From positions 1-40,878 of the IMG/VR virus record IMGVR_UViG_2541047787_000006: a stretch of 40,878 nt of DNA; one strand, written 5' to 3'. The translations under genes were made by a program, and so were the position numbers. Position 1 is the stretch's first letter. Every line of letters starts with the position of its first letter. Positions 1 to 40,878 of this stretch are shown here, in pieces. The notes under the pieces were generated by a model. That model had not been told where the DNA came from and searched no databases. It saw nothing but the letters and a program-made list of their open reading frames with translations. The DNA is from a virus. Its lineage: Duplodnaviria > Heunggongvirae > Uroviricota > Caudoviricetes.

Positions 1-516
1 ATGAAATTTAAAAAATGTCTTCTGCCTGTGGCAATGTTAGCGTCATTCACTCTGGCAGGATGCCAGTCAAATGCTGACGATCATGCCGCCGATGTTTATC
101 AAACCGATCAACTGAATACCAAACAAGAAACTAAAACCGTTAATATTATTTCCATTCTTCCCGCAAAAGTTGCCGTAGACAACTCCCAAAATAAACGGAA
201 CGCACAAGCCTTCGGCGCGCTTATTGGCGCAGTCGCTGGCGGTGTTATCGGCCACAACGTCGGTTCTGGCAGCAATTCCGGAACGACGGCAGGGGCAGTT
301 GGCGGCGGAGCTGTAGGCGCGGCAGCGGGTTCTATGGTGAATGATAAAACCTTAGTGGAAGGTGTTTCTTTAACATATAAGGAAGGCACCAAAGTGTATA
401 CCTCTACCCAGGTGGGTAAAGAGTGCCAGTTTACGACAGGTTTAGCCGTTGTTATTACCACAACGTATAACGAAACGCGTATTCAGCCAAATACTAAATG
501 TCCTGAAAAGAGCTAA
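1..516 (+). CDS. Host lipoprotein with glycine-rich (glycine-zipper-like) segment
   Basis: Signal peptide with lipobox LAGC; Gly/Ala-rich stretch GALIGAVAGGVIGHNVG typical of SlyB/Pcp-like outer membrane lipoproteins; lies outside the prophage. Confidence 0.6.
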   Translation: MKFKKCLLPVAMLASFTLAGCQSNADDHAADVYQTDQLNTKQETKTVNIISILPAKVAVDNSQNKRNAQAFGALIGAVAGGVIGHNVGSGSNSGTTAGAVGGGAVGAAAGSMVNDKTLVEGVSLTYKEGTKVYTSTQVGKECQFTTGLAVVITTTYNETRIQPNTKCPEKS

Positions 517-531
517 TAATCAGGAGGAGTC

Positions 532-1071
532 ATGAAGAAAGTTTTTCTTTGCGCCATCTTGGCCTCCTTAAGCTATCCGGCTATCGCCTCATCATTGCAG
601 GATCAACTCTCTGCTGTAGCAGAAGCTGAACAGCAAGGTAAAAATGAAGAGCAAAGGCAGCATGACGAATGGGTCGCGGAGCGCAACAGGGAAATCCAGC
701 AAGAGAAGCAACGTCGCGCAAATGCCCAGGCCGCCGCTAACAAAAGAGCGGCAACGGCAGCAGCAAATAAGAAAGCTCGTCAGGATAAACTGGACGCCGA
801 AGCCTCTGCGGACAAAAAACGCGATCAAAGTTATGAAGATGAGCTACGCAGCTTAGAGATTCAGAAACAAAAACTGGCGCTGGCGAAAGAAGAAGCCCGC
901 GTTAAGCGAGAAAACGAATTTATCGATCAGGAACTGAAGCACAAAGCTGCGCAAACCGATGTGGTGCAATCTGAAGCTGACGCCAACAGAAATATGACTG
1001 AAGGCGGTCGCGATCTGATGAAAAGCGTGGGCAAAGCAGAAGAGAACAAATCGGACAGCTGGTTTAATTAA
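532..1071 (+). CDS. Secreted coiled-coil protein, host, function unknown
   Basis: AGGAGG RBS at 522-527; N-terminal signal peptide; highly charged Q/K/E/A-rich body. Confidence 0.55.
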   Translation: MKKVFLCAILASLSYPAIASSLQDQLSAVAEAEQQGKNEEQRQHDEWVAERNREIQQEKQRRANAQAAANKRAATAAANKKARQDKLDAEASADKKRDQSYEDELRSLEIQKQKLALAKEEARVKRENEFIDQELKHKAAQTDVVQSEADANRNMTEGGRDLMKSVGKAEENKSDSWFN

Positions 1072-1142: not shown

Positions 1143-1290
1143 CATTCATAGTGCAGGGATTAAAATCATTCCCACTCAATTATTTACGGCAGCCATAACC
1201 AATTGAGTGATAACATTTTTCCAAAACCTCATTTTTTTAGTACCGTTTTATATACCGTCACCGGAAATCAGTACCATGAAAAATGCCATG

Positions 1291-1773
1291 CTATCTTGTC
1301 AGGGTGTCATACTGTTTTTCGCAGACTCTTCCGGCTTCGGCTGCCCGGTCAGCATACTCTGCCAGTTGTCTGTTTCTCTCGAGAGATTTGCTGAGCACGT
1401 CGGCAAGCAAAACTCCGGTGTCTGCGGCTGACGTCCCAGCGCCGACAATGGCGTTATACTGCCTGAGCTGCTCACGGATGGCAAAGAGCTGTTGCTGCAA
1501 CCGGACAGCGCGAGCGGCAGCATCAAGAGCATCATTGCGCGCCTGGTCGATCCTCTGCTGAGCTTCACGTTCATTGGTCGTTTTCTCCTGTTCGTAGTGC
1601 TGACGAACTCTCTCATCTTCAGCTTTGCGGTCTTCCTTCGCCTGCGCATACCCGGCGTTGTACTGACGACTTCCGTGTACATTCCAGGCTGCAACTCCTG
1701 ATATGACCAGAACAGCAAGCATCACCATGATAACCAACTGTTTCCTGTATGCTTTTGCGAATGCCCAGATCAT
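1291..1773 (-). CDS. Rz-like i-spanin
   Basis: N-terminal transmembrane segment, coiled-coil charged periplasmic domain; directly downstream of and overlapping the endolysin gene. Confidence 0.7.
1299..1535 (-). CDS. Rz1-like o-spanin lipoprotein embedded in Rz in another frame
   Basis: Internal start [13 protein letters not shown] gives a lipobox signal peptide (LSGC) followed by a Pro/Ser-rich body; wholly inside the Rz ORF in the +1 frame. Confidence 0.5.
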   Translation of the reverse strand: MMLLMLPLALSGCSNSSLPSVSSSGSITPLSALGRQPQTPEFCLPTCSANLSRETDNWQSMLTGQPKPEESAKNSMTP

Positions 1774-2399
1774 ACCGCCAGCACCTTACTGGCAGTGATG
1801 TACCGCGCGCGCCGGTCGTCGATGCCGTTCCGGCCACCATTGATAATCAGAGTTACACGTGCAATATCGCCGGTATACTTCATGCAACCTTTGCTGGAGA
1901 AGAACCACGCCGCGCTACGAGCCGCGTATTCGTCCTGCGCCAGCAGTTCAGGATTCTCCAGCAAGTCCACTTTCAAGCCGTTTCCGCAGTCACGATAGTT
2001 ATTCAAACCAGTAATCTGGATAAGTCCGCGACCTCGGTAATTCCAGCCATCGCCGGGGGCATTGTTCCCCATGCGTTTGCTGTATACCAGATTTGCGATC
2101 GCTCGCTGGCGCTCGAGTGGCAATGGTGGCTCACCAGCACGGCGACCCAGTGCATTAGCCTGCCCCTGAGTGAGACGCCCAGCCCGAACGAAGTTATCCA
2201 GTCCGCTGACGCTGTAGTTGAAATTCTCCTGCAACCGGGTGAAGCCCCCAGACTCATGCCCGACTTGAGCAATAAACATTGCCTGATCTTCTGCTTTGCT
2301 GATACCAAACTCTTTCATCGCAGAAGTTATATGCGAGAACCAGCGAGCGGACAGCACCTCGCTAATACCAGCAGCTCGCTGGAATTGCTTAATCTCCAT
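1770..2399 (-). CDS. Endolysin, glycoside hydrolase family 19 (chitinase-like lysozyme)
   Basis: Motifs [24 protein letters not shown] and WFF typical of GH19 phage endolysins; position in lysis cassette. Confidence 0.85.
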
Positions 2400-2697
2400 C
2401 TTTAGACCTCGTTATTTTGAAAATCTGAACGACGTTACCGCGCGTTTTAATAACCGCAGCAAGCATGACAGCATTGATAATGACCTCAGATAAATCCACA
2501 GCCATTGGCGTGCGTAACCAGATTGCATAAACGACACGAACAGGAATACTGGCCGCAGCAACAATCAGGAAATAAGCAAGCCACCCTCCCCATCTTCGGT
2601 GTTGAGAACCGTTGCGCCGGAATGTGACAACGCGAATTGCTATACCAGTACAAATAACTGCATTGGTGATTAGCAAAAAAAGCTCATGAGTTACCAT
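2389..2697 (-). CDS. Small lysis-cassette membrane protein (second holin or antiholin-like)
   Basis: 102 aa with 2-3 predicted transmembrane helices; sits between holin and endolysin, overlapping both. Confidence 0.45.
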
Positions 2698-3100
2698 CGT
2701 CGTTTCTCCCAGGCATTAAGTCGCGTGGATTATCAGAGCGGTGATAGAGCCATATTCCAATACGCACTGCTACAATCGCTGACACAAATGCGCCAGCAGA
2801 GAAGACAACCCCGTTCTCGAAAGAATCCTGCGTAATGGTAGGGATTAGACTGGCTATTCCTATAAGAATTGATGCTGTCGCTTTGTAGAAGAGAAGACCG
2901 CAAAGGAAGCTGAGAATAGCCAAGAATAACCGCCGTTTTATTGGATACTCAACTGCAGAGGTAACAAAAATTACCGCACCAGCAAGAGCACCAAGCGCGA
3001 CTTCTGGAGGAACCCCGGCAACAACAGAAGCCAGCGCACCAAGGCTAATCCCCTGATTAAGTGACTCCGTTGTCAGCGTGGTTGCCATAGTGACCACCAT
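2684..3100 (-). CDS. Holin
   Basis: 138 aa, multiple hydrophobic helices, charged C-terminus; first gene of the lysis cassette. Confidence 0.6.
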   Translation of the reverse strand: MVVTMATTLTTESLNQGISLGALASVVAGVPPEVALGALAGAVIFVTSAVEYPIKRRLFLAILSFLCGLLFYKATASILIGIASLIPTITQDSFENGVVFSAGAFVSAIVAVRIGIWLYHRSDNPRDLMPGRNDDGNS

Positions 3101-3285
3101 TTATTGTGCATAATGAACCTCCCTTAGTTGGTGAGCTTATCATACACAACAAACCATATATGGTTAAAAAATATTAAAGATAATAGTAAAAGATTGCCTT
3201 CATGGACAGATTTAGGGATAGTTGCTATCCCTAAAAAATGTGATTTATGTATTGAAATAATAAGTACGGTTTTGCAGCATTATTG

Positions 3286-5532: not shown

Positions 5533-5636
5533 GTTAAATCTCCAGATAGTCGCAGCACCCGTTGCGCCGCATATCTGGTTATTCTATTACCTGAAAAACC
5601 ACATATGGATAGAAAGACTGTAAATACGAATAGATA

Positions 5637-5651
5637 TTACCTTTCAGGTGA
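5637..5651. promoter_or_regulatory. Operator-like palindrome TTACCTTTCAGGTGA
   Basis: Matches the TTACC-N5-GGTAA family found in the immunity region; an extra TTACC half-site lies at 5587-5591. Confidence 0.45.
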
Positions 5652-5690
5652 TTTGCAAAACGTGCTGGATAGCAAACAAATTATTTGATA

Positions 5691-5706
5691 CTGTATAAAT
5701 ATACAG
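5691..5706. promoter_or_regulatory. LexA (SOS) box CTGTATAAATATACAG
   Basis: Perfect CTGT-N8-ACAG dyad with AT-rich spacer, flanked as TACTGTATAAATATACAGTT, about 20 bp upstream of the 5728 start codon and next to a TTGATA hexamer. Confidence 0.6.
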
Positions 5707-5727
5707 TTATTGCATGGAGAAGATAAG

Positions 5728-5985
5728 ATGCAGCAGTATCACTATCCACTGGAAGACGGATTTACCGAAAGGATTCACACGCCGGGAGGCGTCAGGTCAC
5801 TGGTGGAGGGATCGCACTTGATGAAATTACTCCGGGATCTCGATAAGGATGGATTTAATGTCGATGGCCCACTTGCCGAACTGACTGCACTGATTAACTA
5901 CGTCACCAGCTCACAGATGTCTATGCAGGATCTGCAAACACATCTCGACTATTGTGCCGAACAATTACGAAAACAAACCCGGTAA
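5728..5985 (+). CDS. Small protein homologous to the C-terminal domain of the antirepressor at 7373-8029; candidate SOS-induced antirepressor
   Basis: GGAGA RBS 7 nt upstream; product IHTPGGVRSLVEGSHLMKLL..DLQTH aligns with [25 protein letters not shown] of the 7373 protein; the ORF track start at 5710 is TTG without an RBS. Confidence 0.5.
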   Translation: MQQYHYPLEDGFTERIHTPGGVRSLVEGSHLMKLLRDLDKDGFNVDGPLAELTALINYVTSSQMSMQDLQTHLDYCAEQLRKQTR

Positions 5986-5992
5986 ATTTAAA

Positions 5993-6008
5993 GGCCGCAA
6001 GAGCGGCC
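5993..6008. terminator. Hairpin GGCCGC-AAGA-GCGGCC in the 24-bp gap between convergent genes
   Basis: 6-bp GC stem with tetraloop exactly between the stop codons at 5985 and 6010; no long T-run. Confidence 0.4.
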
Positions 6009-6009
6009 A

Positions 6010-6516
6010 TTAACAGTCGTAAAATTCCGGGTCCCACAAACTTGCATCGCGCGGCATGGATTCTAAATTTTTCAGCCGCAAAATTCTGTCACACTCGACA
6101 AGAAGTTTTTGTTTTTGTTCGTCAATTTCTACTTTTTTGTGTGCTGGCTCATCCCAGTAATCCAGAAGAAACGCATGTCGCTCAGACGTTACAAGATAAA
6201 TCACATACACATCACTGGTTGGTATTTTTTTATGCTTGTTGGTGGCCTTGTCTTTCTTCCCGGATGCCCAGTTTTTCCAGCATTGTTCCGTACCGCTCTC
6301 ACCAAACTTGTCAGTATAGTTTCCGATGTTTACGTGAACGTGGCGTATGTGATATTCCAGCATCTCTTTCGGTGGATCCCGAAACAGAGTGTCCTTTCCG
6401 AAATCCTTATGATGACCGTAGCGCCAGTGATCTATGAACGCGTTTTTGATAGGTATTAGCTCAGGGTCCTTCCCAAAAATTCCAGGGTGAACCAACCCCT
6501 GGAATTTATTCAGCAT
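6010..6516 (-). CDS. YafO-like toxin-domain protein (putative mRNA interferase-type toxin), module 1
   Basis: Motifs FGKD..F.DP, RHVHVN, IPTSD, VIYLVT and EPAHK resemble the YafO family as recalled from memory; paralogous to 8331-8876; start ATG at 6516 overlaps the upstream stop (ATGCTGAATAA). Confidence 0.45.
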   Translation of the reverse strand: MLNKFQGLVHPGIFGKDPELIPIKNAFIDHWRYGHHKDFGKDTLFRDPPKEMLEYHIRHVHVNIGNYTDKFGESGTEQCWKNWASGKKDKATNKHKKIPTSDVYVIYLVTSERHAFLLDYWDEPAHKKVEIDEQKQKLLVECDRILRLKNLESMPRDASLWDPEFYDC

Positions 6517-6925
6517 CGTCGTAGAGCTCCTGAGCCATATCTTCGGCAGTGCGTGCAAACATCCTGCGCGAGATTGCATGAGATTTCTCGACGGACATCT
6601 TTGGGACCTCATGCATAACATTTTTGGGAGTTGTGTAATAGCCTATTACAATTTTCACACCTGACTTATGATTAATATCAGCATAATATACTTCTTGTTC
6701 AGACGTTTCACGACGAACATAATCTGCCAGTTTTCCACATTTAAATTCCCCTCCCTGATGTTTTAAAATCTCCTCAACTGCACTATTTTCAGTGAAATAC
6801 CGAATAAGAAATTTCTGTCCAGTCTCTTCAGCATGAGGTATAACAGTATTATTGGAAGCCCGAACAATGGCCTTACTCAATATTTCATGGTCTTTATTTT
6901 TTTCTGATTTCCTCAAATGCTGCAT
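6506..6925 (-). CDS. Upstream partner of toxin-like gene (candidate antitoxin or immunity protein), no recognisable family
   Basis: 139 aa from the ATG at 6925; overlaps the downstream start by 11 nt; C-terminal tail KMSVEKSHAISRRMFARTAEDMAQELYDDAE resembles the tail of the 8177 small ORF. Confidence 0.4.
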   Translation of the reverse strand: MQHLRKSEKNKDHEILSKAIVRASNNTVIPHAEETGQKFLIRYFTENSAVEEILKHQGGEFKCGKLADYVRRETSEQEVYYADINHKSGVKIVIGYYTTPKNVMHEVPKMSVEKSHAISRRMFARTAEDMAQELYDDAE

Positions 6926-6961
6926 TACTGTAGCTCTCTTCGTGTTCACGGGCACCCCCAA

Positions 6962-6976
6962 CTACCTCTAGGGTAA
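6962..6976. promoter_or_regulatory. Operator-like palindrome CTACCTCTAGGGTAA upstream of module 1
   Basis: TTACC-N5-GGTAA family member about 40 bp upstream of the 6925 start on the minus strand; TTGCCA and TAGAAT hexamers immediately upstream on that strand. Confidence 0.45.
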
Positions 6977-7057
6977 ACATTCTATCGAAAGTATACGCAT
7001 ACTGGCAAAAAAATAGGCAGGTATTTTCTGAAATGGGATCAATCAAACCACATAGGG

Positions 7058-7101
7058 TTGAAATAACGTGAGTTATGCATTTATTATTACCTTTGCGGTA
7101 A
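7058..7101 (+). promoter_or_regulatory. Sigma70-like promoter (TTGAAA-N17-TTATTA) with overlapping operator TTACCTTTGCGGTAA at 7087-7101
   Basis: Hexamers read directly; perfect TTACC-N5-GGTAA dyad at the predicted transcription start. Confidence 0.5.
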
Positions 7102-7192
7102 ATTTACATCGCACTCCTCTTGTGCCATAGTAATCGGGCACTGGCAAAATCCAGTGCCGGGATTGGTCTCCCGGATTACTAAGTGGCGCATA

Positions 7193-7214
7193 CCACGCCA
7201 GACGTGGTTTTTTT
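7193..7214 (+). terminator. Rho-independent terminator inside the antirepressor leader
   Basis: Stem CCACG / CGTGG, loop CCAGA, followed by seven T; about 120 nt downstream of the 7058 promoter and 160 nt upstream of the 7373 start. Confidence 0.55.
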
Positions 7215-7372
7215 ATGCGTATAGCACAGTCATGCCAGAATTATGGTGGGCTGAATGGGGGTCCGAAAGGACGCCGGTACCACTTAGGCCGGTAAGACCA
7301 ACTCCGTTCAGTTCACCACCATCTGATTGGTCTCAGCGGTGGTGATGTAATTCGCTAAGTGGAGACGCCATC

Positions 7373-8029
7373 ATGAACGCTCAACTCATCCCCGTATTCA
7401 ACGGCACTATATCTAACGAAACAGCCCTACTTTGTAATGCCCGCGATCTGCACGCTTTTTTAGGTGTTAAAAAGGTGTTTGCAGCATGGATTACAAATCG
7501 CATATCAGAATACGAATTCATTGAAAATCAAGACTATATTTTGCTTTCCAATTTGGGAAAGCAAACATCTGGTAGAGGCGGCCACAACCGCAAAGAGTAC
7601 CACCTTACCCTTGATACAGCCAAAGAGCTGGCGATGGTCGAGCGTAACGAAAAAGGTCGCCAGGTGCGACGCTACTTCATTGAATGCGAGAAACGTTTAA
7701 GACAACAAGAAACAAAAGTGGAGAAGGTCTTGTCAGGCTTCATGCCCGCCATTATGGAGGCGATCAAGCTGGAAGACAAAAAAGAATACAGTGCCCCGCT
7801 GAAGCCCGGCTACCGCAGCCTGATTCATTCTCCGTCTGGTGTTCTCGGCCTGACGGAAAACTCACTGCTGATGAATCTGCTGAACCAGTTACAGGAAGAC
7901 GGGCACGACGTATCGGGCGCGGCGGCGGAGCTGACCACCATGTTCTGCTACATCGTCGGTGTGAGCAAATGCCTGCGTGATATCCAGACCCACGCGGAGT
8001 ACATCAACGACAAGGCTGGGTTCTTCTGA
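7373..8029 (+). CDS. Antirepressor, AntA/AntB-type N-terminal domain plus C-terminal domain shared with the 5728 protein
   Basis: N-terminal [34 protein letters not shown] matches the AntA antirepressor pattern; GGAG RBS at 7361. Confidence 0.7.
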
Positions 8030-8073
8030 CGGGCGGCGGCACAGGGATGTGCCTTTAAATAATTCTGTACAGA

Positions 8074-8116
8074 TTGCAGACTGTGGGTGAATAGCGTACT
8101 ATTACCTCAAGGGTAA
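8074..8116 (+). promoter_or_regulatory. Sigma70-like promoter (TTGCAG-N17-TACTAT) with overlapping operator TTACCTCAAGGGTAA at 8102-8116
   Basis: Same promoter-operator architecture as at 7058 and 35639. Confidence 0.45.
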
Positions 8117-8176
8117 ACGGATTGGTTTCATTTTTATTAATCCGTGTAATGAACTTATGAGATATGAGGTAATGTC

Positions 8177-8356
8177 ATGCGAAACGAAAAATTGCAGATG
8201 CGTAGAGCGCAAGCTGCCGCAAGACGTTCTTTCAATGGAAGCGTAGAGTACGTAAAAGTTACTATGACAAAAGATCACGCAAGTCGCGTATCCAGCGCTT
8301 TCTTTGATTCTCGTAACAATAAGGAAAATTATGAGTTCGTCTGCGTCGCAGAATGA
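8177..8356 (+). CDS. Small 59-aa protein overlapping the start of toxin-like gene (candidate antitoxin), module 2
   Basis: Not in the ORF track (under 60 aa); GAGG RBS at 8166-8169, ATG at 8177; overlaps the 8331 gene by 26 nt; tail KVTMTKDHASRVSSAFF...VAE resembles the C-terminus of the 6506-6925 product. Confidence 0.35.
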   Translation: MRNEKLQMRRAQAAARRSFNGSVEYVKVTMTKDHASRVSSAFFDSRNNKENYEFVCVAE

Positions 8357-8876
8357 TAAAAATCAAATTGTCAGATATAAGGGTCGAGTATTGCATACGC
8401 AAAATTTCTCGGCCCTTTGTGCATCTGATCTTGAGCTGAAGAAAGTATCTGATGCCTTTGCCCAGTATTGGAAAACGGGATACCATCCATCTCTTGGTAA
8501 AGATGCTGCATTTGCTCGTCCGACAGAAATGCTTAAACTAAATGTCAGGCATACTCATGTCGATAACCAAGACTATATTCCAGAAGATAGTGATAAAAAA
8601 CACACTGGTAAAAAATCATCTTGGGATGCATGGAAAAATATAGCGTCTGTACAAGTAAAATGCATACCAACAAGTGATTGCTTTTTAGTTTATTCGGTAA
8701 ATCACAATCGTGATGCGCTGGTTATGTTTTTTGTTGACGCAGATGCTCACAACATAACTGAGCAAGAAGAGTTTAAAGAGGCAGCAATCACTATCAGTTA
8801 TCAATTCTTTGAGAAAACAAAAACAGAACCAATGCCTTTAGAAGAAGATCTTTTTTCTGATAAATGGAAGGAATAG
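8331..8876 (+). CDS. YafO-like toxin-domain protein, module 2 (paralog of 6010-6516)
   Basis: AAGGA RBS 5 nt upstream of the ATG at 8331; shares W.TGYH, LGKD..F.RP.EML, RHTHVD, IPTSD, LVYSV and DAHN motifs with the 6010 product. Confidence 0.45.
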   Translation: MSSSASQNDKNQIVRYKGRVLHTQNFSALCASDLELKKVSDAFAQYWKTGYHPSLGKDAAFARPTEMLKLNVRHTHVDNQDYIPEDSDKKHTGKKSSWDAWKNIASVQVKCIPTSDCFLVYSVNHNRDALVMFFVDADAHNITEQEEFKEAAITISYQFFEKTKTEPMPLEEDLFSDKWKE

Positions 8877-8968
8877 CCCGCGGCGCGGGCTTTTTTGTGG
8901 ACGAAACAAAAGTCAGTGCTACACTCATTAACGCCACATTGAGGTGGCTTATAGATGGAAATTTCACA

Positions 8969-9130
8969 ATGAAAAAAGCATTTGCTGCACTGTTCGTTTT
9001 GTTGTCTCTGGTAGCTTCAACTCAGGCCTTTGCCGGTCGTTGTCAGCACGACAGCGATACTGCCGCTGACGGCTCCCGCTGCGGTGGGCGTTCTGCGGAT
9101 TCCCGCCCGGGCGGCGGTGGCATTCGTTAA
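8969..9130 (+). CDS. Small secreted Cys-containing peptide (53 aa), function unknown
   Basis: Internal ATG at 8969 gives signal peptide MKKAFAALFVLLSLVASTQAFA followed by a Gly/Arg/Cys-rich tail; terminator-like hairpin directly downstream. Confidence 0.35.
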   Translation: MKKAFAALFVLLSLVASTQAFAGRCQHDSDTAADGSRCGGRSADSRPGGGGIR

Positions 9131-9136
9131 AAACAA

Positions 9137-9152
9137 GGCCGCGAAAGCGGCC
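9137..9152. terminator. Hairpin GGCCGC-GAAA-GCGGCC between convergent genes, followed by palindrome GTGACATGTCAC (9154-9165)
   Basis: GC stem with GNRA-like loop; stem nearly identical to the hairpin at 5993-6008. Confidence 0.4.
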
Positions 9153-9166
9153 TGTGACATGTCACG

Positions 9167-9727
9167 CTACATTGATATATGATTCATAAAGTAGCTTAAA
9201 GATTTACTTCCCAGAAAAGAAATTTCTTTTCCTGGATATGTCGCAATAATTGAGCATGACTTATCCCCGTTAGAGGTAACAAATCCTGAATAACCTACTT
9301 GTTCTTTACCATTTTGTTGCTTGGCTAAAAAGTAGAGGTAGCTTATCTTTTTGCCCTCTGGGTAAAACTCTGCCAAACCAGTATCGGTGATTGAATATTT
9401 TATTCTCCCGCCTTGAGTAACGTTTTCCATCTCAAGTTTAGCTATGTCTTTTCTGTTGTATTCAGCATTGATTTTCCTTTCGAAATCAATATTGTTTTCA
9501 AATGAGTAGGAAGCAACAGTCTGAATAGATGGGAACACGTTTATCTGGATGCCTCCACAGTCGGCACAGGTATAAAGGTATGAATCAGATGGAATCCCCA
9601 TAAAAGAAAACTGAGTTACCTTAAATTTATCGCTATCTCCAAAGTATTGAAGTTCGCATTTAACATTTTGCCCTGCAAAAGAAAATGCAGACATCAATAT
9701 TGAAACAAAAAATATAATTGCCTTCAT
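9167..9727 (-). CDS. Secreted or periplasmic protein of unknown function (moron)
   Basis: Signal peptide MKAIIFFVSILMSAFSFA; 4 Cys; markedly AT-rich gene between core-protein gene and cargo island. Confidence 0.55.
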   Translation of the reverse strand: MKAIIFFVSILMSAFSFAGQNVKCELQYFGDSDKFKVTQFSFMGIPSDSYLYTCADCGGIQINVFPSIQTVASYSFENNIDFERKINAEYNRKDIAKLEMENVTQGGRIKYSITDTGLAEFYPEGKKISYLYFLAKQQNGKEQVGYSGFVTSNGDKSCSIIATYPGKEISFLGSKSLSYFMNHISM

Positions 9728-25815: not shown

Positions 25816-25904
25816 ATCAATGACTCCGTACGCAATTAAATTATTACCAATTTAACCACATATGATTTATTTATCGTAGATAGTTGACATTTAACGCACG
25901 AATT

Positions 25905-25919
25905 ATTACCTTTCAGGTA
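25905..25919. promoter_or_regulatory. Operator palindrome TTACCTTTCAGGTAA, with TTGACA hexamer at 25883-25888
   Basis: Perfect TTACC-N5-GGTAA dyad; nearly identical to the site at 5637. Confidence 0.45.
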
Positions 25920-26242
25920 AGCAAAGAGTTCATTCCGGTTATTAACCTGACTGGCTTGTCGTTAAATTGAACAGGTGGAGTGAGCTTTTATTTTGAGCAG
26001 TACGGCGTATGGCACATGCGCCGATAGCGGTCTGGATACGTTTAAGGGGCACCCTCCCTTGCTCGAGCAAACGAACCAGGTAGCCGGAATGTGCAAGTCG
26101 AGCGGTTTTATTCCGCGCACGGGGATTCACCATCCCGGCGATTCGGTGTGACGCCTCGGAAGAGACGAGGGTGCAACGATGAGAGCATTTATGGAGCCGC
26201 GACAAAGTGTGGCGCCTTAACAGGCTAAGTGCTCTCAGCGTT

Positions 26243-26319
26243 GTGGCATTAGCTCAGTTGGACAGAGCAACCGCCTTCTAAGCGGTTGGTCGCAGGTTCG
26301 AATCCTGCATGCCACGCCA
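26243..26319 (+). tRNA. tRNA-Arg, anticodon UCU
   Basis: Cloverleaf read by hand: acceptor GTGGCAT/ATGCCAC, D-arm GCTC..GAGC, anticodon stem ACCGC/GCGGT with loop CTTCTAA, T-arm GCAGG-TTCGAAT-CCTGC, discriminator G and CCA. Confidence 0.85.
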
Positions 26320-26522: not shown

Positions 26523-26894
26523 ATGAGTGACAAAGACATTGAATCTGAAATTCAGGCTAAAGGTTTAGCCGCGCCGCGCGTTACGCCAGACCATATCGAG
26601 AGCATTATTGCTCAGGAGGCATATTTCACAGCAGAAGATGGTGCCTTTGGCGTAGCCATAAAAGCGAAACATACTGGCGGAGAGGTAAACTACCAGCCGC
26701 ACGAATCACTTTCTCTGCTGACGTTCTGCGTCCTGGTGCTGCGCAACGGCTTCACCGTCACCGGAGAGAGCGCCTGTGCAAGCCCGGAAAACTTTGATGC
26801 AGAAATTGGTCGGAAGATTGCCCGACAGAATGCTGTAAACAAAATCTGGATGCTTGAAGGTTACTTGCTGAAGCAGAAGTTAAGCGAGCAATAA
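26523..26894 (+). CDS. Conserved phage protein, possibly N4 gp49 / Sf6 gp66 family
   Basis: AAGGTGAG RBS; 123 aa; family assignment is from memory only; oriented opposite to the flanking late genes. Confidence 0.5.
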   Translation: MSDKDIESEIQAKGLAAPRVTPDHIESIIAQEAYFTAEDGAFGVAIKAKHTGGEVNYQPHESLSLLTFCVLVLRNGFTVTGESACASPENFDAEIGRKIARQNAVNKIWMLEGYLLKQKLSEQ

Positions 26895-26913
26895 CACCGT
26901 GACATATCACAAA

Positions 26914-26941
26914 CAGCCAGCCTATGAGCTGGCTTTGTTTT
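26914..26941 (+). terminator. Terminator after the plus-strand insert
   Basis: Stem GCCAGC / GCTGGC followed by TTTGTTTT. Confidence 0.5.
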
Positions 26942-26984: not shown

Positions 26985-28460
26985 TTAAGCATAGGGATCG
27001 TAATCTGTGATGGCCTTGCCTTGCTGGTTCTGCTGCCCGGGAATTCGCAGACGCTTAGACACAGGGAACGCAAACGTCAGCAGTAGCGCATCGCCTTTAC
27101 CCGGTGAACGCCCAAGCCGCTCCTTGATATCTTCCTTCGGTTCGATAACGATTTTACCGTCCACTCGAACTTTGTACTCTGCCGCCGACAGGTCGTCTGC
27201 TGTTTCCTGGTCGTCCAGCGCGCCGCCTAGCTTCAGCCACGTCTTGCAGCTGTTGAACATCTCTCCGCGCTTATTTAGCATCTGGGGATCGGTCGAGCCG
27301 CCGCCGAACGGGATTAGCTGCCATGTCCTGCCCCAGCCGTCACCGATGGACTTCAGCCCGGTGCCGTAACCGAAGTCGATGAACACCGCGTCAGCCTGGT
27401 ACTGGTCTTCAAAGTCGGCGATTCGCTTAGCCATAATCAAATCGTCGGTGGTCTTGTTGCCGGTCCAGAGCACTTTGCTGTGCAGCCCCTGCCGCAGGTA
27501 TATCACCGCGTCATCAACTCCGGAATACGCCGGGTCGACGCCGATAATCACAGGAGCGTGAGCAACCTGCCCGGCGGTAACCACCCGCTTCATGGCCTCG
27601 TCTGTAAGGCCTGTTGGGATAAACTGGAGTTCTGACGCGTCAGGGAAGATCCCCCGCACGCGGACCTTCACGAAGTCGCTGTCTTCGCCGTAGTCGTCAA
27701 CCCATTTCTGCAGCTGCTGCTTGTTTGTGCCTTCCACGGTGCGGCTGTCAATCTGCGCGCACTTCCAGCGGTGCTTGTACTTGCGGAAGCATTCGCGGAA
27801 GCGCCCGGTGTTACGCGTCGGGTTCCCAAACGCCACCCAGATAATTTCCGTGTCTTCGTCCGTCAGCGCACCTTCAGCAACTTCCCACACCAGATCTGCA
27901 ATGTTGGACGCTTCATCGAATACCACGATGATACGCTTACGCTCGTTGTGCAGCCCGGCGAACGCCTCTGTGTTGTGCTCAGACCACGGTATTGCGTCAG
28001 CTCGCCAGCGCTTGTCGTGGCCTGGGTCATTGCTGTACATCGCCGTGGCGGTGCAGGTGAACCACTCTTTCGTGATAGCCAGATTCGACCATTTGATGAT
28101 TTCCGGCCATGTCTTGGTGCGCAGCTGGTTGTCGGTGTTGGCGGTCACCACGACCTTACAATCCTCGCAAGTGGACATGCCCCAGTTGATCAGCATTGAG
28201 ATGAATGCGGATTTACCAATACCGTGACCAGAAGCGCGTGCCAGCATAAGCGGCTGATATCGCGTCTCTGGATTCTGCAGGTGATCACGTATCTCTCGGA
28301 ACGCATCGGCCTGCCACTGACGTGGACCGGTGGCATGTGCCAGTTCAGTCCCCTCTTCCCCCCACGGGAACGCATAGAGGGCATAACCAAGCGGATCGTG
28401 AGTAAACCCTGCAATATCCTCGATCAACTGCTCTTCAGGAGATAACACTGTATCTGTCAC
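26985..28460 (-). CDS. Terminase large subunit
   Basis: 491 aa; Walker A-like GHGIGKS; nuclease-type C-terminal region; GTG start. Confidence 0.9.
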   Translation of the reverse strand: MTDTVLSPEEQLIEDIAGFTHDPLGYALYAFPWGEEGTELAHATGPRQWQADAFREIRDHLQNPETRYQPLMLARASGHGIGKSAFISMLINWGMSTCEDCKVVVTANTDNQLRTKTWPEIIKWSNLAITKEWFTCTATAMYSNDPGHDKRWRADAIPWSEHNTEAFAGLHNERKRIIVVFDEASNIADLVWEVAEGALTDEDTEIIWVAFGNPTRNTGRFRECFRKYKHRWKCAQIDSRTVEGTNKQQLQKWVDDYGEDSDFVKVRVRGIFPDASELQFIPTGLTDEAMKRVVTAGQVAHAPVIIGVDPAYSGVDDAVIYLRQGLHSKVLWTGNKTTDDLIMAKRIADFEDQYQADAVFIDFGYGTGLKSIGDGWGRTWQLIPFGGGSTDPQMLNKRGEMFNSCKTWLKLGGALDDQETADDLSAAEYKVRVDGKIVIEPKEDIKERLGRSPGKGDALLLTFAFPVSKRLRIPGQQNQQGKAITDYDPYA

Positions 28461-29089
28461 TGATTACCATCCTGACGTTCTTTGAGTCGCTTCCTGGCTG
28501 CTGCTATGCGATCAGCAATTGTCACATTCACATTAACATCCAGGCGTTCTTTGAATGCGTTGACGTCGACGTGCTTACCAATCAGTTCGAGGTTTTTCAC
28601 CTTGTCGGGCCATTTCACCTTCTTCAGGATATGCTCGACATCCTCAACAGAGAGATCCGCCTCGCCATTCTCTTTTTGCAGAGAGGCCTGAGTCGTCTTG
28701 ATAGTAGCGATATCCATCGCGCTGAGAGAGGTGCGCCATACCTTAGGCCACTCAGCGATCGGCTTCATCCCGCCGTCGTCGTTCAAGATATCCAGGACAT
28801 CCATCTGGTCGATCTCTACCAGGCGCATGAGGACGTAATCAGCGCTGACGCGCATTCGTTTGTTGCGCTCCTCCATCAACTCGGCAATCCGTTTTTGAAT
28901 GCGTTCATCGCGCATCATGACACTGGCTTTAACTGCCGCTGTATTTGGGGAGAATCCTGCGTTAATCGCTGCCTGAGTCTGGTTTTCAGGCGTTTTGATG
29001 TATGACTGGCAATAAGCCTCCTGCATTGCTGTTAGTGGCTTAAATTGCGTTGATTTGCGTTTATAGGTTTTAGGTTCAGCAGGCATCAT
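28457..29089 (-). CDS. Terminase small subunit
   Basis: N-terminal HTH-like region TAMQEAYCQSYIK...AAINAGFSPNTAAVKAS typical of small terminases; start chosen at the internal ATG with a GGTGG RBS rather than the ORF track start at 29185. Confidence 0.65.
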   Translation of the reverse strand: MMPAEPKTYKRKSTQFKPLTAMQEAYCQSYIKTPENQTQAAINAGFSPNTAAVKASVMMRDERIQKRIAELMEERNKRMRVSADYVLMRLVEIDQMDVLDILNDDGGMKPIAEWPKVWRTSLSAMDIATIKTTQASLQKENGEADLSVEDVEHILKKVKWPDKVKNLELIGKHVDVNAFKERLDVNVNVTIADRIAAARKRLKERQDGNQ

Positions 29090-29095
29090 AACCAC

Positions 29096-29128
29096 CGTGG
29101 TAATAGTTACCGTTGTGGTAATAGTACC
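29096..29128. repeat. Tandem direct repeat GTGGTAATAG(T)TACC x2 immediately upstream of the small terminase gene
   Basis: Two adjacent copies, each an everted GGTAA-N3-TTACC arrangement. Confidence 0.5.
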
Positions 29129-29132
29129 ATGC

Positions 29133-29158
29133 AAAATAAAGCCGCCATAGTTGGCGGC
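29133..29158 (-). terminator. Minus-strand rho-independent terminator separating the small-gene block from the late operon
   Basis: On the minus strand: stem GCCGCCA / TGGCGGC followed by TTTATTTT. Confidence 0.5.
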
Positions 29159-29206
29159 AGTATTCAAAACCATCAAATTCATCATGCATAATCTACTCGT
29201 GACATG

Positions 29207-29548
29207 TCACACTATTAATTTCGTTTCATGCCAGCCTTTAGTCACCCAGCATTGCGAGTCACCATTACACGGGCATGAATTAACTGGAACTCTCTCGCCG
29301 CACTTACCGCAACATTTTCTGCTGATCGATTTTATACGCCCGCGCACGCGTGCATCATCCTGGCGGATCAGTAACGCTATATACTCACCAAATTCGTAAG
29401 GCGCACGCCCGGGGCGACGCGTGGCACAGTTACTCTCCAGCATTTCAATTTCCTGAGCATCAAGCACAATTTCCAGCTTACGCACACCAGATGCAGCTTG
29501 TCTGGCTCTCTGAGCGGCTTTGCGCTCTGCTGCTGATTTAGCCATCAA
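29207..29548 (-). CDS. Hypothetical protein with basic helical N-terminus and Cys-rich (zinc-binding-like) C-terminus
   Basis: C-terminal CCGKCG...CPCNGDSQC cluster; last gene before the late-operon terminator. Confidence 0.45.
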   Translation of the reverse strand: MMAKSAAERKAAQRARQAASGVRKLEIVLDAQEIEMLESNCATRRPGRAPYEFGEYIALLIRQDDARVRGRIKSISRKCCGKCGERVPVNSCPCNGDSQCWVTKGWHETKLIV

Positions 29549-32496: not shown

Positions 32497-32561
32497 GATT
32501 TACCCCTGAGGTAATTAAAAACCACATAAGACATGAAATCAATAGATTTTAGAATATTTTA

Positions 32562-32576
32562 TTACCAAACAGGTAA
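32562..32576. promoter_or_regulatory. Operator palindrome TTACCAAACAGGTAA
   Basis: Perfect TTACC-N5-GGTAA dyad in the gap between the P-like and DUF1064 genes. Confidence 0.45.
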
Positions 32577-32613: not shown

Positions 32614-33414
32614 TTACTTGATAAATCCTGACGCCTTTCCCCGCCTGTATTCCTCCATCAGCCACTGCGCCGGTGTTATTCCCCCCAGGGTGGCGGCGTT
32701 AGGCATACACCCGAAACTTCGCCCTGGTGGATGGTAAACGTCTCTCCCTGTGTCCGGAGGCGTACTCATGGGTTCTGGCTTTGCCTGTATGCTGATCACC
32801 GGATCGGGTATCTGCTGTCCGGAAGCCACCTTTTTCGCCCAATCATCGAGCAGCCTGCGCGCGTGTTTCTCAACCTCAATCTCGCTAAGCTGGCGCTGAT
32901 ACATTGCACGGCGGGTATCACATACGACCCAGTACATAACCGGATGCCGCCACGGGAATCTTTCGGGACCACCAGGATATAAACTTTTTTCCTTGCTGTA
33001 CCGGTGAAACTCCGTCATCACATCGTCAATGGTGACGCCAAGAACCATCTTGCTGTCTTTACACCACTTGATAAATTGCCCTGGCGACGGCCAGAACGGA
33101 GATTCACTGGCGCGGGCGTGGCGCATACCAGCAGAAACCTGTTCACGGGTTCGGATCCCCCCTTCGGCAAACGCAGCAATCCACTGCTGTTTTGCAGCAA
33201 CTTCCTGCTCTGGCGTCTTCAGGTTGGTTACCACTGCCGCCGGAAACAGTTGTTTCAGCTGTTTGAAAAGGGCATCAACAAGCCTCTCTGCTGACATGTT
33301 CACCACATTGTCATTGTTGGTGTACTGATGCTCATAACCTGACATGCGAGAAAGGGCTTCTCCGTCACGGTTTTGTATCGCGGTAAAAACGTTGTTCACA
33401 AGAAATCCTCCCAT
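32614..33414 (-). CDS. Replication protein P-like (helicase loader)
   Basis: QWIAAFAEGGIRTREQVSAGMRHARASESPFWPSPGQFIKWC closely parallels the lambda P motif RQWVLAFRENGITTMEQVNAGMRVARRQNRPFLPSPGQFVAWC. Confidence 0.8.
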   Translation of the reverse strand: MGGFLVNNVFTAIQNRDGEALSRMSGYEHQYTNNDNVVNMSAERLVDALFKQLKQLFPAAVVTNLKTPEQEVAAKQQWIAAFAEGGIRTREQVSAGMRHARASESPFWPSPGQFIKWCKDSKMVLGVTIDDVMTEFHRYSKEKSLYPGGPERFPWRHPVMYWVVCDTRRAMYQRQLSEIEVEKHARRLLDDWAKKVASGQQIPDPVISIQAKPEPMSTPPDTGRDVYHPPGRSFGCMPNAATLGGITPAQWLMEEYRRGKASGFIK

Positions 33415-34211
33415 GCTTCAGGGCTGTTCCAGTGCGGAACGTTGTTATCAGGTAATGTTGATTGCTTCTGTCTGCTAATCTGCAGCCGCCTTGCCAGCTT
33501 CTGCTCCCACTGTGCCTGATGGTATGCCTTACCCTCAGCCATCCAGTAAATTCTGAACTCTGCAAGTTCCTGTGCCGTTGGCAGACTGTCCAGGTAGATC
33601 CCCTGCAATGAGCTTTTCCGAAGAAAGTCATCTGATGGCTGCCATTGTTCATGCATGACAAATTTGCCTAATTGCCCTGGCCCACCAGGAGGAACAAAGT
33701 TATTCATCACGGCGTTGTTTGCACCGGGGTCATGAGGCACAGAATCCCCGCTTTTTGTCCTGCTCTCCCTCTCTTGGTTAAATGACTGGTTATATGACTG
33801 GTTCTGGATCCCGTTTTTGGGATCATTCAACATCCCGTTTTTGGGATCATTCAACATCCCGTTTTTGGGTATATTCCCGTTTTCGGTAACATTACCGTTT
33901 TCGGGTTCATTGCCCCCCTCCCGGTTGCCTTTAATGTTCCCGTTTTTGGTTATATTAAGAGAGAAAACCCGCACTCTTTTTGTCGCTCCCTTTCTCTCTC
34001 CGGTATCTGAAATAAGCCCCATTTTCATGAGCGATATAAGCCCGGCCTGCACGGTTTTTTTATTCAGGCAAGTGTCTTTAACGAGGCGTTCTATGCTGGG
34101 GTAGCAGAGGTTATATTCATCGGCTCTGTCAGCTATCGAGAGCAGTATGAGCTTTAATGATGAGCTACCTGGATCTGTCTCCCAGGCCCAATCTGTTGCA
34201 TGTCTGCTCAT
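33396..34211 (-). CDS. Replication initiator, O-like winged-helix N-terminus, with iterons inside the gene
   Basis: N-terminal LKLILLSIADRADEYNLCYPSIERLVKD..GLI winged-helix pattern; internal repeated NG..N peptide encoded by the iteron DNA. Confidence 0.7.
   Translation of the reverse strand: MSRHATDWAWETDPGSSSLKLILLSIADRADEYNLCYPSIERLVKDTCLNKKTVQAGLISLMKMGLISDTGERKGATKRVRVFSLNITKNGNIKGNREGGNEPENGNVTENGNIPKNGMLNDPKNGMLNDPKNGIQNQSYNQSFNQERESRTKSGDSVPHDPGANNAVMNNFVPPGGPGQLGKFVMHEQWQPSDDFLRKSSLQGIYLDSLPTAQELAEFRIYWMAEGKAYHQAQWEQKLARRLQISRQKQSTLPDNNVPHWNSPEAWEDFL
33808..33956. repeat. Iteron array (candidate replication origin) inside the O-like gene
   Basis: About six copies of (T/A)(T/A)CCCGTTTT(T/C)GG; the first three have an exact 24-bp period, two of them identical ATCCCGTTTTTGGGATCATTCAAC. 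Confidence 0.7.
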
Positions 34212-34844: not shown

Positions 34845-34907
34845 TCACCTATAAGGTAACAAAAATCAAGGATAGTTACCTATGGGGTGCATTTACCTGT
34901 TGGGTAA
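34845..34907. promoter_or_regulatory. Immunity-region operator cluster: TCACCTATAAGGTAA (34845-34859), TTACCTATGGGGTGC (34876-34890), TTACCTGTTGGGTAA (34893-34907)
   Basis: Three copies of the TTACC-N5-GGTAA dyad within the 154-bp gap between the cro-like and repressor-like genes. Confidence 0.6.
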
Positions 34908-34962: not shown

Positions 34963-35547
34963 ATGAAAAGTATCCAGGACGTCCGCAGGCAAAATCTCAA
35001 CGACTTGATCGACCGTGAATTCAATGGTGTTCAGACGCGGATGGCAGAAAAACTTGGAACTCAGGCAAATCTGGTAAACCGCTGGGCTCTTGGCAAGAAG
35101 GTTATCGGCGACCAGGTTGCGCGAAAAATTGAAGCTGCCGCAAATAAACCCCGTAACTGGCTTGATATCGATCGCTCGCTTTCTCAGGAGGGTTTTCAGC
35201 CTGTCGGCCCAAGCGACATTGGTCAGCTGGCGGCTCACAACCTGGAACGCTGGATGAGCGAAAGCCGCGACCTTTCAACTCAGGGAAAACTTCACCGCGC
35301 ATCCGGCGTCGCCCAGGTGACAATCAGCCGCCTGTTAAACAATGAGGTCAGCGTTTCCATTTCCACCCTGGAGAATGTTGCATCCGCATTCGGGCGTCAC
35401 GGCTATGAATTACTGATTCACCCGCACGACCCTGCGACTATCAACTATGATCGCTCGCGCTACGCATTGTTACCCGAAACCGAGAAAGCAAAGATCGAAA
35501 GTTACATTGAATTTGTCATCAACCAGAACGAAAAAAACAAACAATAA
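34963..35547 (+). CDS. Prophage repressor candidate with two HTH motifs and no peptidase domain
   Basis: Two HTH-like segments (QANLVNRWALGKK and GVAQVTISRLLNNE); no recognisable S24-type cleavage module; divergent from cro. Confidence 0.55.
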   Translation: MKSIQDVRRQNLNDLIDREFNGVQTRMAEKLGTQANLVNRWALGKKVIGDQVARKIEAAANKPRNWLDIDRSLSQEGFQPVGPSDIGQLAAHNLERWMSESRDLSTQGKLHRASGVAQVTISRLLNNEVSVSISTLENVASAFGRHGYELLIHPHDPATINYDRSRYALLPETEKAKIESYIEFVINQNEKNKQ

Positions 35548-35604: not shown

Positions 35605-35626
35605 TTACCCGCCGGGTAATTTTTTT
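35605..35626 (+). promoter_or_regulatory. Perfect operator dyad TTACCCGCCGGGTAA followed by a T-run (operator and/or second terminator)
   Basis: TTACC-N5-GGTAA at 35605-35619 then seven T; dual reading possible. Confidence 0.45.
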
Positions 35627-35638
35627 AACTCATATCTA

Positions 35639-35681
35639 TTGACATCAAACCAGATACGCATAATTATTACCTCAACGGTAA
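35639..35681 (+). promoter_or_regulatory. Early rightward promoter (TTGACA-N16-TAATTA) with overlapping operator TTACCTCAACGGTAA at 35667-35681
   Basis: Consensus -35 hexamer, AT-rich -10, operator at the predicted transcription start. Confidence 0.55.
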
Positions 35682-39627: not shown

Positions 39628-40878
39628 TTATTCCCCCGCCATCCACTTCTCAAACTTCGACGGGGAGAACGGAATCAGATCCGTATGCTCCCCGTTAATC
39701 CAGGAATCAATCATATCGGCCCACTGCTGCAACATGTAGGCGCGCTGTCTGGCGTATTCCGCTTTGTTATATACGGCGCGCACACCTTTCTGCTCATGTG
39801 CCAGAGCCTTTTCAATCCAGTCTGAAGGATAACCAGCCTCATGCAACAACGTACTGGCTGTACGACGCATATCGTGTACGGTGAAGTCCTGAATATGCTC
39901 ACCATCTTCATTTATTATTTTCACCGTTCTGTCGATCAGAGAGTTCAGCGCGGCATTAGATAATGGCTTCCGGAAATTGTAACGACCAGGAACCAGATAT
40001 TCACTTCCACCAGCGCACATCTGCAACCCGACCAATATATCCTGTGCCTGTTTAGGCAGGTAAATAACGTGCGCCCGGCTTCCCTTCATGCGGTCTGAAG
40101 GAATTGTCCATGTCCATTTTTTAAAATCTATTTCATCCCACGTTGCATTGGTGAATTCGCCTTTACGAACCATAGTGATAAGCACCAGCCTTAAAGCCAT
40201 TTTCATAGTGCCCATAGCACCAATGGCATCCAGCGTACGGAAGAACAGGCCAATTTCTTCTGGTGTCAGTGTTCGCTCTCGTGGTTTAAATATGGCGATA
40301 GACGAAGGTTTAATGTCAGCCGCAGGATTAAACAAACCATGACCACGGTCATTGGCGTGACGGTATACGCTGCTGATGATCTCCCTTGCCTGTACTGCTG
40401 TTGCCCGACCACCGCGTTCGACAATCCGGTCACACAAATCACGAACCATCGATGTGGTAATTTCAGTCATCATTTTGTTGCCAAGAACTGGAAGTATGTC
40501 ACGGTCGATCACCGCCTGCTTCATTGCGCGGGTACTGTCAGCCAGGATGACGTGTTTCATATAACTGTCGGTATGTACCGTAAACGTCTCGGCACCACGA
40601 ATCTTTTTGATACCGTCACGTTTAGCCGCAGCCGGTGACTGGCCTGCTTTAAGCAGCTTCTTTGCAGCAATCAGTTCTTCTCGCGCTTCTGCCAGGCTGA
40701 TACCGTCACGCCCATACTGCCCGATTACCAGTGTTTCGCGGCGACCGTTGATACGGTAGTCATAGCGAAACGAGACCGTGCCTGACGTAAGCACAGCTAC
40801 ATACAGCCCGTCACGATCGGAGACCTTGTACAGTTTGTCCTGCGGCTTGAGGTTTTTTAATTTTGTATCGGTAAGCAC
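39628..40878 (-). CDS. int: Tyrosine integrase, P4-type; N-terminus truncated by the window edge
   Basis: N-terminal LTDTKLKNLKP arm-binding signature; C-terminal catalytic region with HDMRRTA and the tyrosine-containing segment VRAVYNKAEY; ORF runs to the last base of the window. Confidence 0.85.
   Translation of the reverse strand: MLTDTKLKNLKPQDKLYKVSDRDGLYVAVLTSGTVSFRYDYRINGRRETLVIGQYGRDGISLAEAREELIAAKKLLKAGQSPAAAKRDGIKKIRGAETFTVHTDSYMKHVILADSTRAMKQAVIDRDILPVLGNKMMTEITTSMVRDLCDRIVERGGRATAVQAREIISSVYRHANDRGHGLFNPAADIKPSSIAIFKPRERTLTPEEIGLFFRTLDAIGAMGTMKMALRLVLITMVRKGEFTNATWDEIDFKKWTWTIPSDRMKGSRAHVIYLPKQAQDILVGLQMCAGGSEYLVPGRYNFRKPLSNAALNSLIDRTVKIINEDGEHIQDFTVHDMRRTASTLLHEAGYPSDWIEKALAHEQKGVRAVYNKAEYARQRAYMLQQWADMIDSWINGEHTDLIPFSPSKFEKWMAGE

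Follow-up and report, generated by a model that had tools for sequence, protein, structure and literature searches.

Sequence analysis of a predicted repressor-controlled promoter upstream of the small terminase gene in a Uetakevirus prophage

Organization of the terminase locus

The stretch of DNA analysed here (the window; 40,878 nucleotides, IMG/VR record IMGVR_UViG_2541047787_000006) contains genes for a small and a large terminase (terS, terL) which, together with the genes upstream of them, showed 94-96% identity to those of epsilon15/phiV10-like podophages (genus Uetakevirus). By these sequence similarities, the window is a Uetakevirus (epsilon15/phiV10-like) prophage. Late genes are carried on the minus strand, on which the stop codon of a gene for a 113-aa protein is followed by a terminator, operators, terS, and terL. 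The following features were assigned:

26985-28460, minus strand: terL, large terminase, with its own terminator near 26910-26935
28457-29086, minus strand: terS, small terminase (Terminase_2; Pfam PF03592, E 5e-28; start codon chosen by conservation)
29092-29096, minus strand: terS Shine-Dalgarno sequence GGTGG, conserved and annotated as a ribosome-binding site in phage Tyrion
29089-29103, unstranded: O2, operator with one mismatch (TTACC ACGGT GGTTA), covering the Shine-Dalgarno sequence
29107-29121, unstranded: O1, exact operator (minus strand TTACC ACAAC GGTAA)
29121-29129, minus strand: predicted extended -10 element TGgTACTAT (TG at 29129-29128, hexamer TACTAT at 29126-29121)
29097-29128, plus strand: direct repeats as first parsed, GTGGTAATAGTTACC (29097-29111) and GTGGTAATAGTACC (29115-29128)
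29131-29158, minus strand: intrinsic terminator closing the early-right (replication/nin-like) gene block

From this arrangement, terS and terL are predicted to form a two-gene transcription unit that ends at its own terminator; a terminator after terL is annotated in the phiV10 record. The terS start codon kept among relatives is the ATG at 29086-29084, and an additional in-frame ATG is present at 29089-29087. A terS reading frame reaching 29185, like one beginning at the TTG start of phiV10, would cross the terminator and is unlikely to be real. Upstream starts (TTG or ATG) are given in several records (phiV10, CDS 41..715; PAS61; VB_ST_E15) and carry the frame through the terminator and both operators, which yields a spurious '...HGTITTTVTITTVV' N-terminus (window 28457-29185, minus strand). 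In the Tyrion, TL-2011b, epsilon15, and SPC32H records, terS begins at the conserved ATG behind the GGTGG ribosome-binding site. For annotation, the terS start codon belongs after the operators, while some records place it upstream, across the terminator.

The gene directly upstream (29207-29548) is conserved throughout the genus and carries the PHROG label 'transcriptional regulator' (phrog_536). Its 113-aa product has distant homologs in Vibrio and Yersinia phages and gave no match in Pfam, NCBIfam, or PDB.

The terminator, read on the minus strand from 29158 to 29131, consists of GCCGCCAACTATGGCGGC followed by TTTATTTTG (entered in the feature table as TTTATTTTGC). Its hairpin has seven stem pairs, six of them G-C, and a loop of 4 nt, and the predicted fold of -15.8 kcal/mol corresponds to a z-score of -5.6 relative to shuffled sequences. 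Positions 29131-29158 thus combine a G+C-rich hairpin with a U-tract, as is characteristic of rho-independent terminators. The element is kept in relatives without a umuD-like insert (see below), and the equivalent stem-loop of epsilon15 is annotated as a rho-independent terminator (39646-39672). A minus-strand intrinsic terminator at the end of the early block had been proposed in a preliminary description of this DNA, and the strength of the hairpin, its z-score of -5.6, and its conservation bear this out.

Some relatives carry a umuD-like gene between the 113-aa gene and terS, equipped with a LexA box and a strong promoter of its own. This insert takes the place of the terminator, and the extended -10 motif and O1 are kept right after its stop codon. 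It was seen in loci L007 (BUCT554; 1150-1640) and L008 (Klebsiella phage ST11-OXA245phi3.2; 1870-2330), as well as in L015, L017, and several IMG/VR loci.

Direct repeats and the operator motif

After the terminator, the minus strand reads CA TGgTACTAT TACC ACAAC GGTAA CTA TTACC ACGGT GGTTA TG ATG. Within this sequence, the 11-mer GTGGTAATAGT occurs twice (29097-29107 and 29115-29125; spacing 18 bp; 11/11 identical), and the repeat lengthens to GTGGTAATAG(T)TACC when one indel is allowed. Exact 11-mers repeated within 12-30 nt are expected by chance 0.18 times per window, and the only other short-range 11-mer repeat in the window is found in the replication-origin iterons (33808-33869). Taken alone, the repeat has only modest significance, and the case for it depends on conservation and on how often the motif described below occurs in the genome.

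The presence of two direct repeats before terS, built from operator half-sites, was thus correctly recognized in the preliminary description. Its further interpretation as an everted element with a 3-bp spacer was not upheld, as this arrangement is a by-product of an exact and an imperfect TTACC-N5-GGTAA operator that stand 3 bp apart. In the window, the everted form GGTAA-N(0-12)-TTACC occurred only three times. The direct repeat arises because the segment formed by the -10 element and the left half of O1 resembles the segment formed by the right half of O1, the spacer, and the left half of O2. The direct repeat was not accepted as an independent element, since its two units are no longer alike in diverged relatives in which the central palindrome is still exact. 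The outer half-sites on which the everted reading depended decay across relatives, and the O1 palindrome is kept in 95 of 96 loci.

The iterons mentioned above lie within the gene for the replication initiator (33396-34211, minus strand), which contains perfect 24-bp tandem repeats (2.6 copies, 33808-33869). Repeats of 12 and 18 bp neighbour this array (33775-33803 and 33857-33911), and these repeats within the initiator gene probably represent iterons of the replication origin.

A search for the half-sites in both arrangements showed that they recur genome-wide in the form TTACC-N5-GGTAA. The window holds nine exact copies of this 15-bp palindrome, compared with 0.28 expected, and the spacer is 5 bp in every one; none of 100 shuffled sequences reached even three copies. 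Exact copies start at 7087, 8102, 25906, 29107, 32500, 32562, 34893, 35605, and 35667, and copies with one mismatch at 5637, 6962, 9351, 29089, and 34845. Outside the terminase locus, operators are arranged as follows:

7087-7101, plus strand: exact operator in register with TTGAAA-18-TATTAT, upstream of a Bro/Ant-family gene (7373-8029)
8102-8116, plus strand: exact operator in register with TTGCAG-17-TACTAT
25906-25920, unstranded: exact operator where the tRNA-Arg/gp49-66-family unit and the portal/head operon diverge
32500-32514 and 32562-32576, minus strand: operator pair 62 bp apart, bracketing TTGATT-17-TTTAAT of the resolvase/DUF1064 operon
34845-34907, unstranded: operator cluster between rep and a divergent cro-like gene, with copies at 34845 (one mismatch), 34876 (two mismatches), and 34893 (exact)
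35605-35619 and 35667-35681, plus strand: operator pair 62 bp apart, bracketing TTGACA-17-AATTAT of the leftward-early (recombination) operon

Each of the two pairs frames a clear sigma-70 promoter. The pair at the resolvase/DUF1064 operon stands directly after a terminator, and the operator at 25906-25920 is orthologous to epsilon15 protein_bind 2931..2947. In the three genomes tabulated (the window, phiV10, and Tyrion), TTACC-N5-GGTAA was by far the commonest palindrome of the 5-N5-5 form. It occurs 8-11 times in each of phiV10, Tyrion, VB_ST_E15, BUCT554, SPC32H, and epsilon15, and in these six genomes it takes equivalent positions at terS, the portal block, the tail-fibre/ant region, both sides of rep, and the resolvase gene. 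Judged from its presence on both flanks of rep, its location over promoters, and the epsilon15 annotation, TTACC-N5-GGTAA is the operator of the phage repressor.

Between terL and the portal block, the tRNA-Arg gene (anticodon TCT; 26243-26319, plus strand) runs opposite to the late genes and adjoins the gp49/66-family gene (26523-26894); SPC32H also has a tRNA-Arg. In the window it is apparently driven by a predicted, operator-overlapped promoter (TTGACA-17-TACCTT, ~25885-25913). A further sequence, TATGTGGTT, has four exact copies on the minus strand (5597-5605, 7046-7054, 25854-25862, and 32520-32528), always on the late-gene strand, intergenic, and near an operator. The genes that follow are the tail fibre gene, the gene at 6506-6961, the portal block, and the resolvase gene, respectively. 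In two of the four cases GGTAATA is found 5 nt beyond TATGTGGTT, which may be a second regulatory motif.

Conservation at terS was analysed in upstream regions from 96 loci (nine phage records including the window, seven GTDB genomes, and 80 IMG/VR loci), which yielded 36 distinct sequences when aligned by anchoring on O1. The O1 site was exact in 86 of 87 metagenome or genome loci and in all nine phage records, and the sole exception differed by a single mismatch. Its distance to the terS ATG is about 35 nt (26-37 nt). Among the 36 distinct sequences, the O1 half-sites were invariant except for one sequence with AGTAA (35/36 at that base), an invariance that in part reflects the shared ancestry of the compared sequences, all of which are related; all five positions of the spacer varied. 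The repressors found across the loci, which were 42-100% identical, all accompany the same motif. In the epsilon15 RefSeq record, the feature 'protein_bind 12..27, repressor, lysogeny' is TTACCAAAACGGTAAT, orthologous to O1; it stands directly before terS (47..643) and directly after the terminator stem-loop at the end of the record, which holds six further repressor protein_bind features, located at other copies of the motif. The SPC32H genome has the same operator before terS, at positions 12-26.

In the window, O1 spans the junction of the two direct repeats, and O2 starts 3 bp later and ends 2 nt before the conserved ATG. Among relatives, 26 of 34 distinct forms have O2 as an operator with one mismatch. 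The gap to O1 ranges over 3-5 bp, and the end of O2 always falls 2 nt before the ATG; conservation of O2 cannot be separated from that of GGTGG, the ribosome-binding site. It has been lost in a Klebsiella-like clade. Function of O2 as an operator is tentatively considered probable on these sequence data. A partner operator at 62 bp from O1, as present at two other promoters, was not found within two mismatches.

Two mosaic IMG/VR genomes, L104 (IMGVR_UViG_651053022_000007, 1-9260) and L037 (IMGVR_UViG_3300045988_054982, 1-9350), have DNA upstream of the ASCH and 113-aa genes that is unrelated to the window and encodes a DnaC-like loader, RusA, and HNH. In both, this upstream DNA contains no TTACC-N5-GGTAA, and no Rep homolog is present within the 10 kb analysed, the immunity region lying outside. 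The O1 and O2 sites and the portal-block operator are intact, and these mosaics may serve as a natural experiment on the identity of the protein bound at the late operators.

Predicted promoter and repression of the terminase genes

The upstream end of O1 overlaps a sequence with the characteristics of an extended -10 promoter. In the 36 distinct sequences, T-8, G-7, T-5, A-4, T-2, A-1, and T0 were invariant, again partly as a matter of common descent, and positions -6 and -3 each showed three bases; that is, the functionally critical TG (-15/-14), T-12, A-11, A-8, and T-7 of an extended -10 element were all retained, and the two remaining positions were free. The motif TGnTAnTAT was kept in two unrelated upstream contexts, the terminator or the 3' end of the umuD-like gene (14 distinct sequences). 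A TGnTAnTA flank was exclusive to terS-proximal operators (9 of 136 operator flanks) and is therefore not part of the general operator flank. The -10 hexamer of this motif shares its final T with O1, where it is the initial T of TTACC, and four other promoter/operator modules in the window show the same register. On this basis, transcription is predicted to start in the middle of O1, near 29114, with a leader of ~28 nt.

The four other promoters in this register have recognizable -35 hexamers at 17-18 bp. At terS none was found, and the DNA 16-18 bp upstream is terminator stem (TATGGC and similar). Promoters of the extended -10 class do not require a -35 hexamer. The hexamer TACTAT itself matches the -10 hexamer at only four of six positions, and a consensus promoter scan made no call there. 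Neither the scan nor inspection by eye revealed a classical -35/-10 promoter in the DNA from the terminator to the ATG, and only the extended -10 class fits. Its pattern of conservation indicates that TGnTAnTAT is probably an active small promoter for terS-terL.

The candidate ligand of these operators and the gene proposed to control it were assigned as follows:

34963-35547, plus strand: rep, prophage repressor of 194 aa with two HTH domains (Pfam HTH_3 and YdaS-like HTH)
5689-5708 and 5728-5985, plus strand: LexA box TACTGTATAAATATACAGTT (one mismatch to the 12 specified bases of the LexA-box pattern) and ant

The Rep protein gave a full-length match to Rep of SPC32H (PDB 5D50, E 4e-42). 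Its HTH regions comprise residues 21-61 (YdaS-like) and 106-147 (HTH_3), and it has no LexA-type cleavage domain, which fits inactivation mediated by an antirepressor and not by RecA. Operators flank rep on both sides (34845-34907 and 35605-35681). The repressors of the compared phages are 43-78% identical, and segments such as NLVNRW, which are invariant in the HTH regions, are candidate recognition segments. Rep has been described as a tetramer on palindromic sites that is disassembled by the antirepressor Ant (PMC9638917). In the window, ant (5728-5985) shares 88% identity with its SPC32H counterpart, which carries the annotation 'ant, anti-repressor protein', and by sequence the induction route probably runs from LexA via Ant to Rep. 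Another gene, of the Bro/Ant family (7373-8029), follows a promoter under operator control. Binding of Rep to the O1 copy is inferred from the motif, its conservation, its orthology to the epsilon15 site, and the homology of Rep.

The preferred interpretation, with an estimated probability of about 0.75, is that the Rep operator O1, together with the weaker O2, silences a small terS-terL promoter located directly after an insulating terminator. In a lysogen, Rep at O1 (and O2) would block RNA polymerase from starting the terS-terL transcript, and bound Rep would also obstruct polymerase leaking from upstream; O2 would cover the DNA that encodes the terS ribosome-binding site. The upstream terminator would insulate the packaging genes from the long early-right transcript. 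During the SOS response, LexA-controlled Ant would strip Rep from all ~10 operators together, upon which the terminase promoter would fire. Where relatives lack the terminator, bound Rep would also be a roadblock for polymerases arriving from the SOS-controlled umuD-like gene.

It is also conceivable, if unlikely, that the Rep operator acts as a roadblock only, without a promoter, where Rep at O1/O2 would halt polymerases that got past the terminator or, in relatives, came from the umuD-like gene, and that terS is expressed after induction solely by read-through from upstream, as with stoperators, which are a documented precedent (PMC9283540, PMC6550527). The identity of the operator is equally strong under both explanations, the -35 hexamer is absent, and four relatives lack the terminator and have an SOS-controlled upstream gene reading into terS, for which a roadblock would be needed. 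However, a roadblock alone would leave unexplained the invariant TG and TA..AT in two unrelated contexts, as well as the -10/operator register common to four bona fide-looking promoters. Moreover, the strong terminator would leave terS untranscribed unless an antiterminator acted, and neither phiV10 nor epsilon15 has one annotated. That the palindromes fold in the terS leader RNA, so as to hide the ribosome-binding site (translational control) or to serve as an anti-terminator or attenuator, appears very improbable. A 96-nt RNA folds at -34 kcal/mol (z -4.9), with a predicted hairpin that pairs ACCAC with the Shine-Dalgarno sequence GGUGG, but the RNAalifold consensus reached only -4.9 kcal/mol, with compensatory change at 0 of 12 pairs and a covariation term of about zero. 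The half-sites are invariant and never co-vary, the pairing register is not the same between relatives, and the motif occurs in both orientations and in non-leader positions.

In the preliminary description, the region was regarded as a dedicated late-control site, a target of either an activator or antitermination. Part of this view stands, in that a protein-binding control site composed of operator half-sites heads the first late (packaging) operon, after the terminator. Its geometry is not distinct, however, as an exact canonical operator spans the repeat junction. Binding of an activator such as the 113-aa product of 29207-29548 could be argued from the genus-wide conservation and regulator label (phrog_536) of this neighbour, from the position at the head of the first late operon, and from the missing -35 hexamer, which is frequent among activator-dependent promoters. 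Against this, the conserved element is a standard operator and not an everted arrangement; the same motif flanks the repressor gene and overlaps the -10/+1 region of early promoters; no sequence is conserved upstream of the -10 element in the two unrelated contexts; and searches of Pfam, NCBIfam, and PDB with the 113-aa protein returned no match. With its location past the terminator, on top of the predicted -10/+1, the site is placed for repression, its epsilon15 ortholog is annotated 'protein_bind: repressor, lysogeny', and RNAalifold returned a consensus without covariation, so that an activator or antitermination target is considered highly improbable. Features of Q-type or put/nut-like antitermination were not found, as the site is located past the terminator and no antiterminator is annotated in phiV10 or epsilon15; the observation in the preliminary description that no Q-like antiterminator was recognized in the window agrees with the annotations of these two phages. 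Scarcely credible, finally, is the idea that the repeats form a pac/cos-type site recognized by the small terminase at the head of the terS gene itself. The site does lie immediately before terS, and the phiV10, epsilon15, SPC32H, and Tyrion records were opened within ~100 bp of it. The motif has ~10 copies per genome (8-11), located at promoters, where a unique site would be expected; record starts vary by phage and look conventional (after a terminator or the stop codon of an upstream gene), and nothing ties the site to DNA ends.

For annotation, the sequence before terS is thus best described as a Rep operator with a probable promoter, and not as a late activator site or a pac site.

Relation to known phage systems and a second palindrome

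The terS-proximal operator is already known in kind, since its epsilon15 ortholog (NC_004775.2, 12..27, one of seven sites) is annotated. Both sites occupy the same place, after the early-right terminator and ~35 nt before the terS ATG, and share the palindrome TTACC-N5-GGTAA; the other sites also coincide (portal, tail-fibre/ant, beside rep, resolvase). The O1 spacer is ACAAC in the window and AAAAC in epsilon15, and the O2 mismatch lies in the right half-site (GGTTA) in the window, whereas it is in the left half-site (TTACT) in epsilon15. The epsilon15 record, whose features look like predictions, has neither a promoter nor a second site annotated. The additions made here are the extended -10 reading, the promoter/operator register, the candidate second site, and genus-wide statistics of conservation.

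With the Rep/Ant switch of SPC32H, also a Uetakevirus, the window shares a full-length Rep homolog, ant behind a LexA box, and an operator before terS; its Rep is ~43% identical to the epsilon15/SPC32H type. The work on SPC32H reportedly concerned the immunity-region and ant promoters. In the ZX5 paper no operator is defined.

Dispersed repressor sites are also known for the C1 operators of phage P1. The stoperators of mycobacteriophages L5 and Bxb1 likewise combine one immunity repressor with many dispersed sites, including sites in front of late and structural operons. With many dispersed sites, a prophage is silenced directly at many points and not at one switch only. Stoperators are asymmetric, orientation-dependent sites of 13-14 bp, ~20-30 in number, at which a monomer binds and elongation is affected (PMC9283540). 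In the window, by contrast, the ~10 sites are palindromic and most keep a constant register with a -10 hexamer, as in classical promoter occlusion, and O1, a perfect palindrome in promoter register, does not have the characteristics of a stoperator. In lambda, late control involves PR', qut/QBE, tR', and the antiterminator Q. No Q-like gene is annotated in phiV10 or epsilon15, and the site in the window lies after a terminator instead of at a promoter before it and is an operator for the immunity repressor. Prophages of the phiV10 type, which serve as reporter phages, are widespread in E. coli O157 and in other enterobacteria, and the present assignments bear mainly on their correct annotation. 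Uetakevirus provides a tidy case of a prophage silenced at ~10 dispersed operators, which is of use in engineering inducible or reporter derivatives and in asking how late timing works without a Q-like factor.

If late and early genes were derepressed together, their temporal order would lack an explanation. A tentative and rather doubtful proposal is that there is no late activator or antiterminator step, that the tetrameric repressor gates every late unit via -10-registered operators, and that a termination-modulating factor acting at the palindrome GTGACATGTCAC, possibly the 113-aa protein, supplies the order. If this were so, the terminase unit would be the extreme case, with an extended -10 promoter that lacks a -35 hexamer placed between a terminator and a start codon.

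The 12-bp palindrome GTGACATGTCAC occurs exactly at 29199-29210 and 9154-9165 and with one mismatch at 26899-26910. These are the 3' ends of three late-direction transcription units, and each copy stands beside an intrinsic terminator: over the stop codon that ends the 113-aa gene, immediately past the last structural gene, and immediately past terL, respectively. The palindrome is conserved genus-wide, and the same three positions are occupied in phiV10, Tyrion, epsilon15, SPC32H, BUCT554, and most IMG/VR loci. A protein that modulates termination, or some other regulator, could bind at GTGACATGTCAC, within which the phiV10 and Tyrion records begin.
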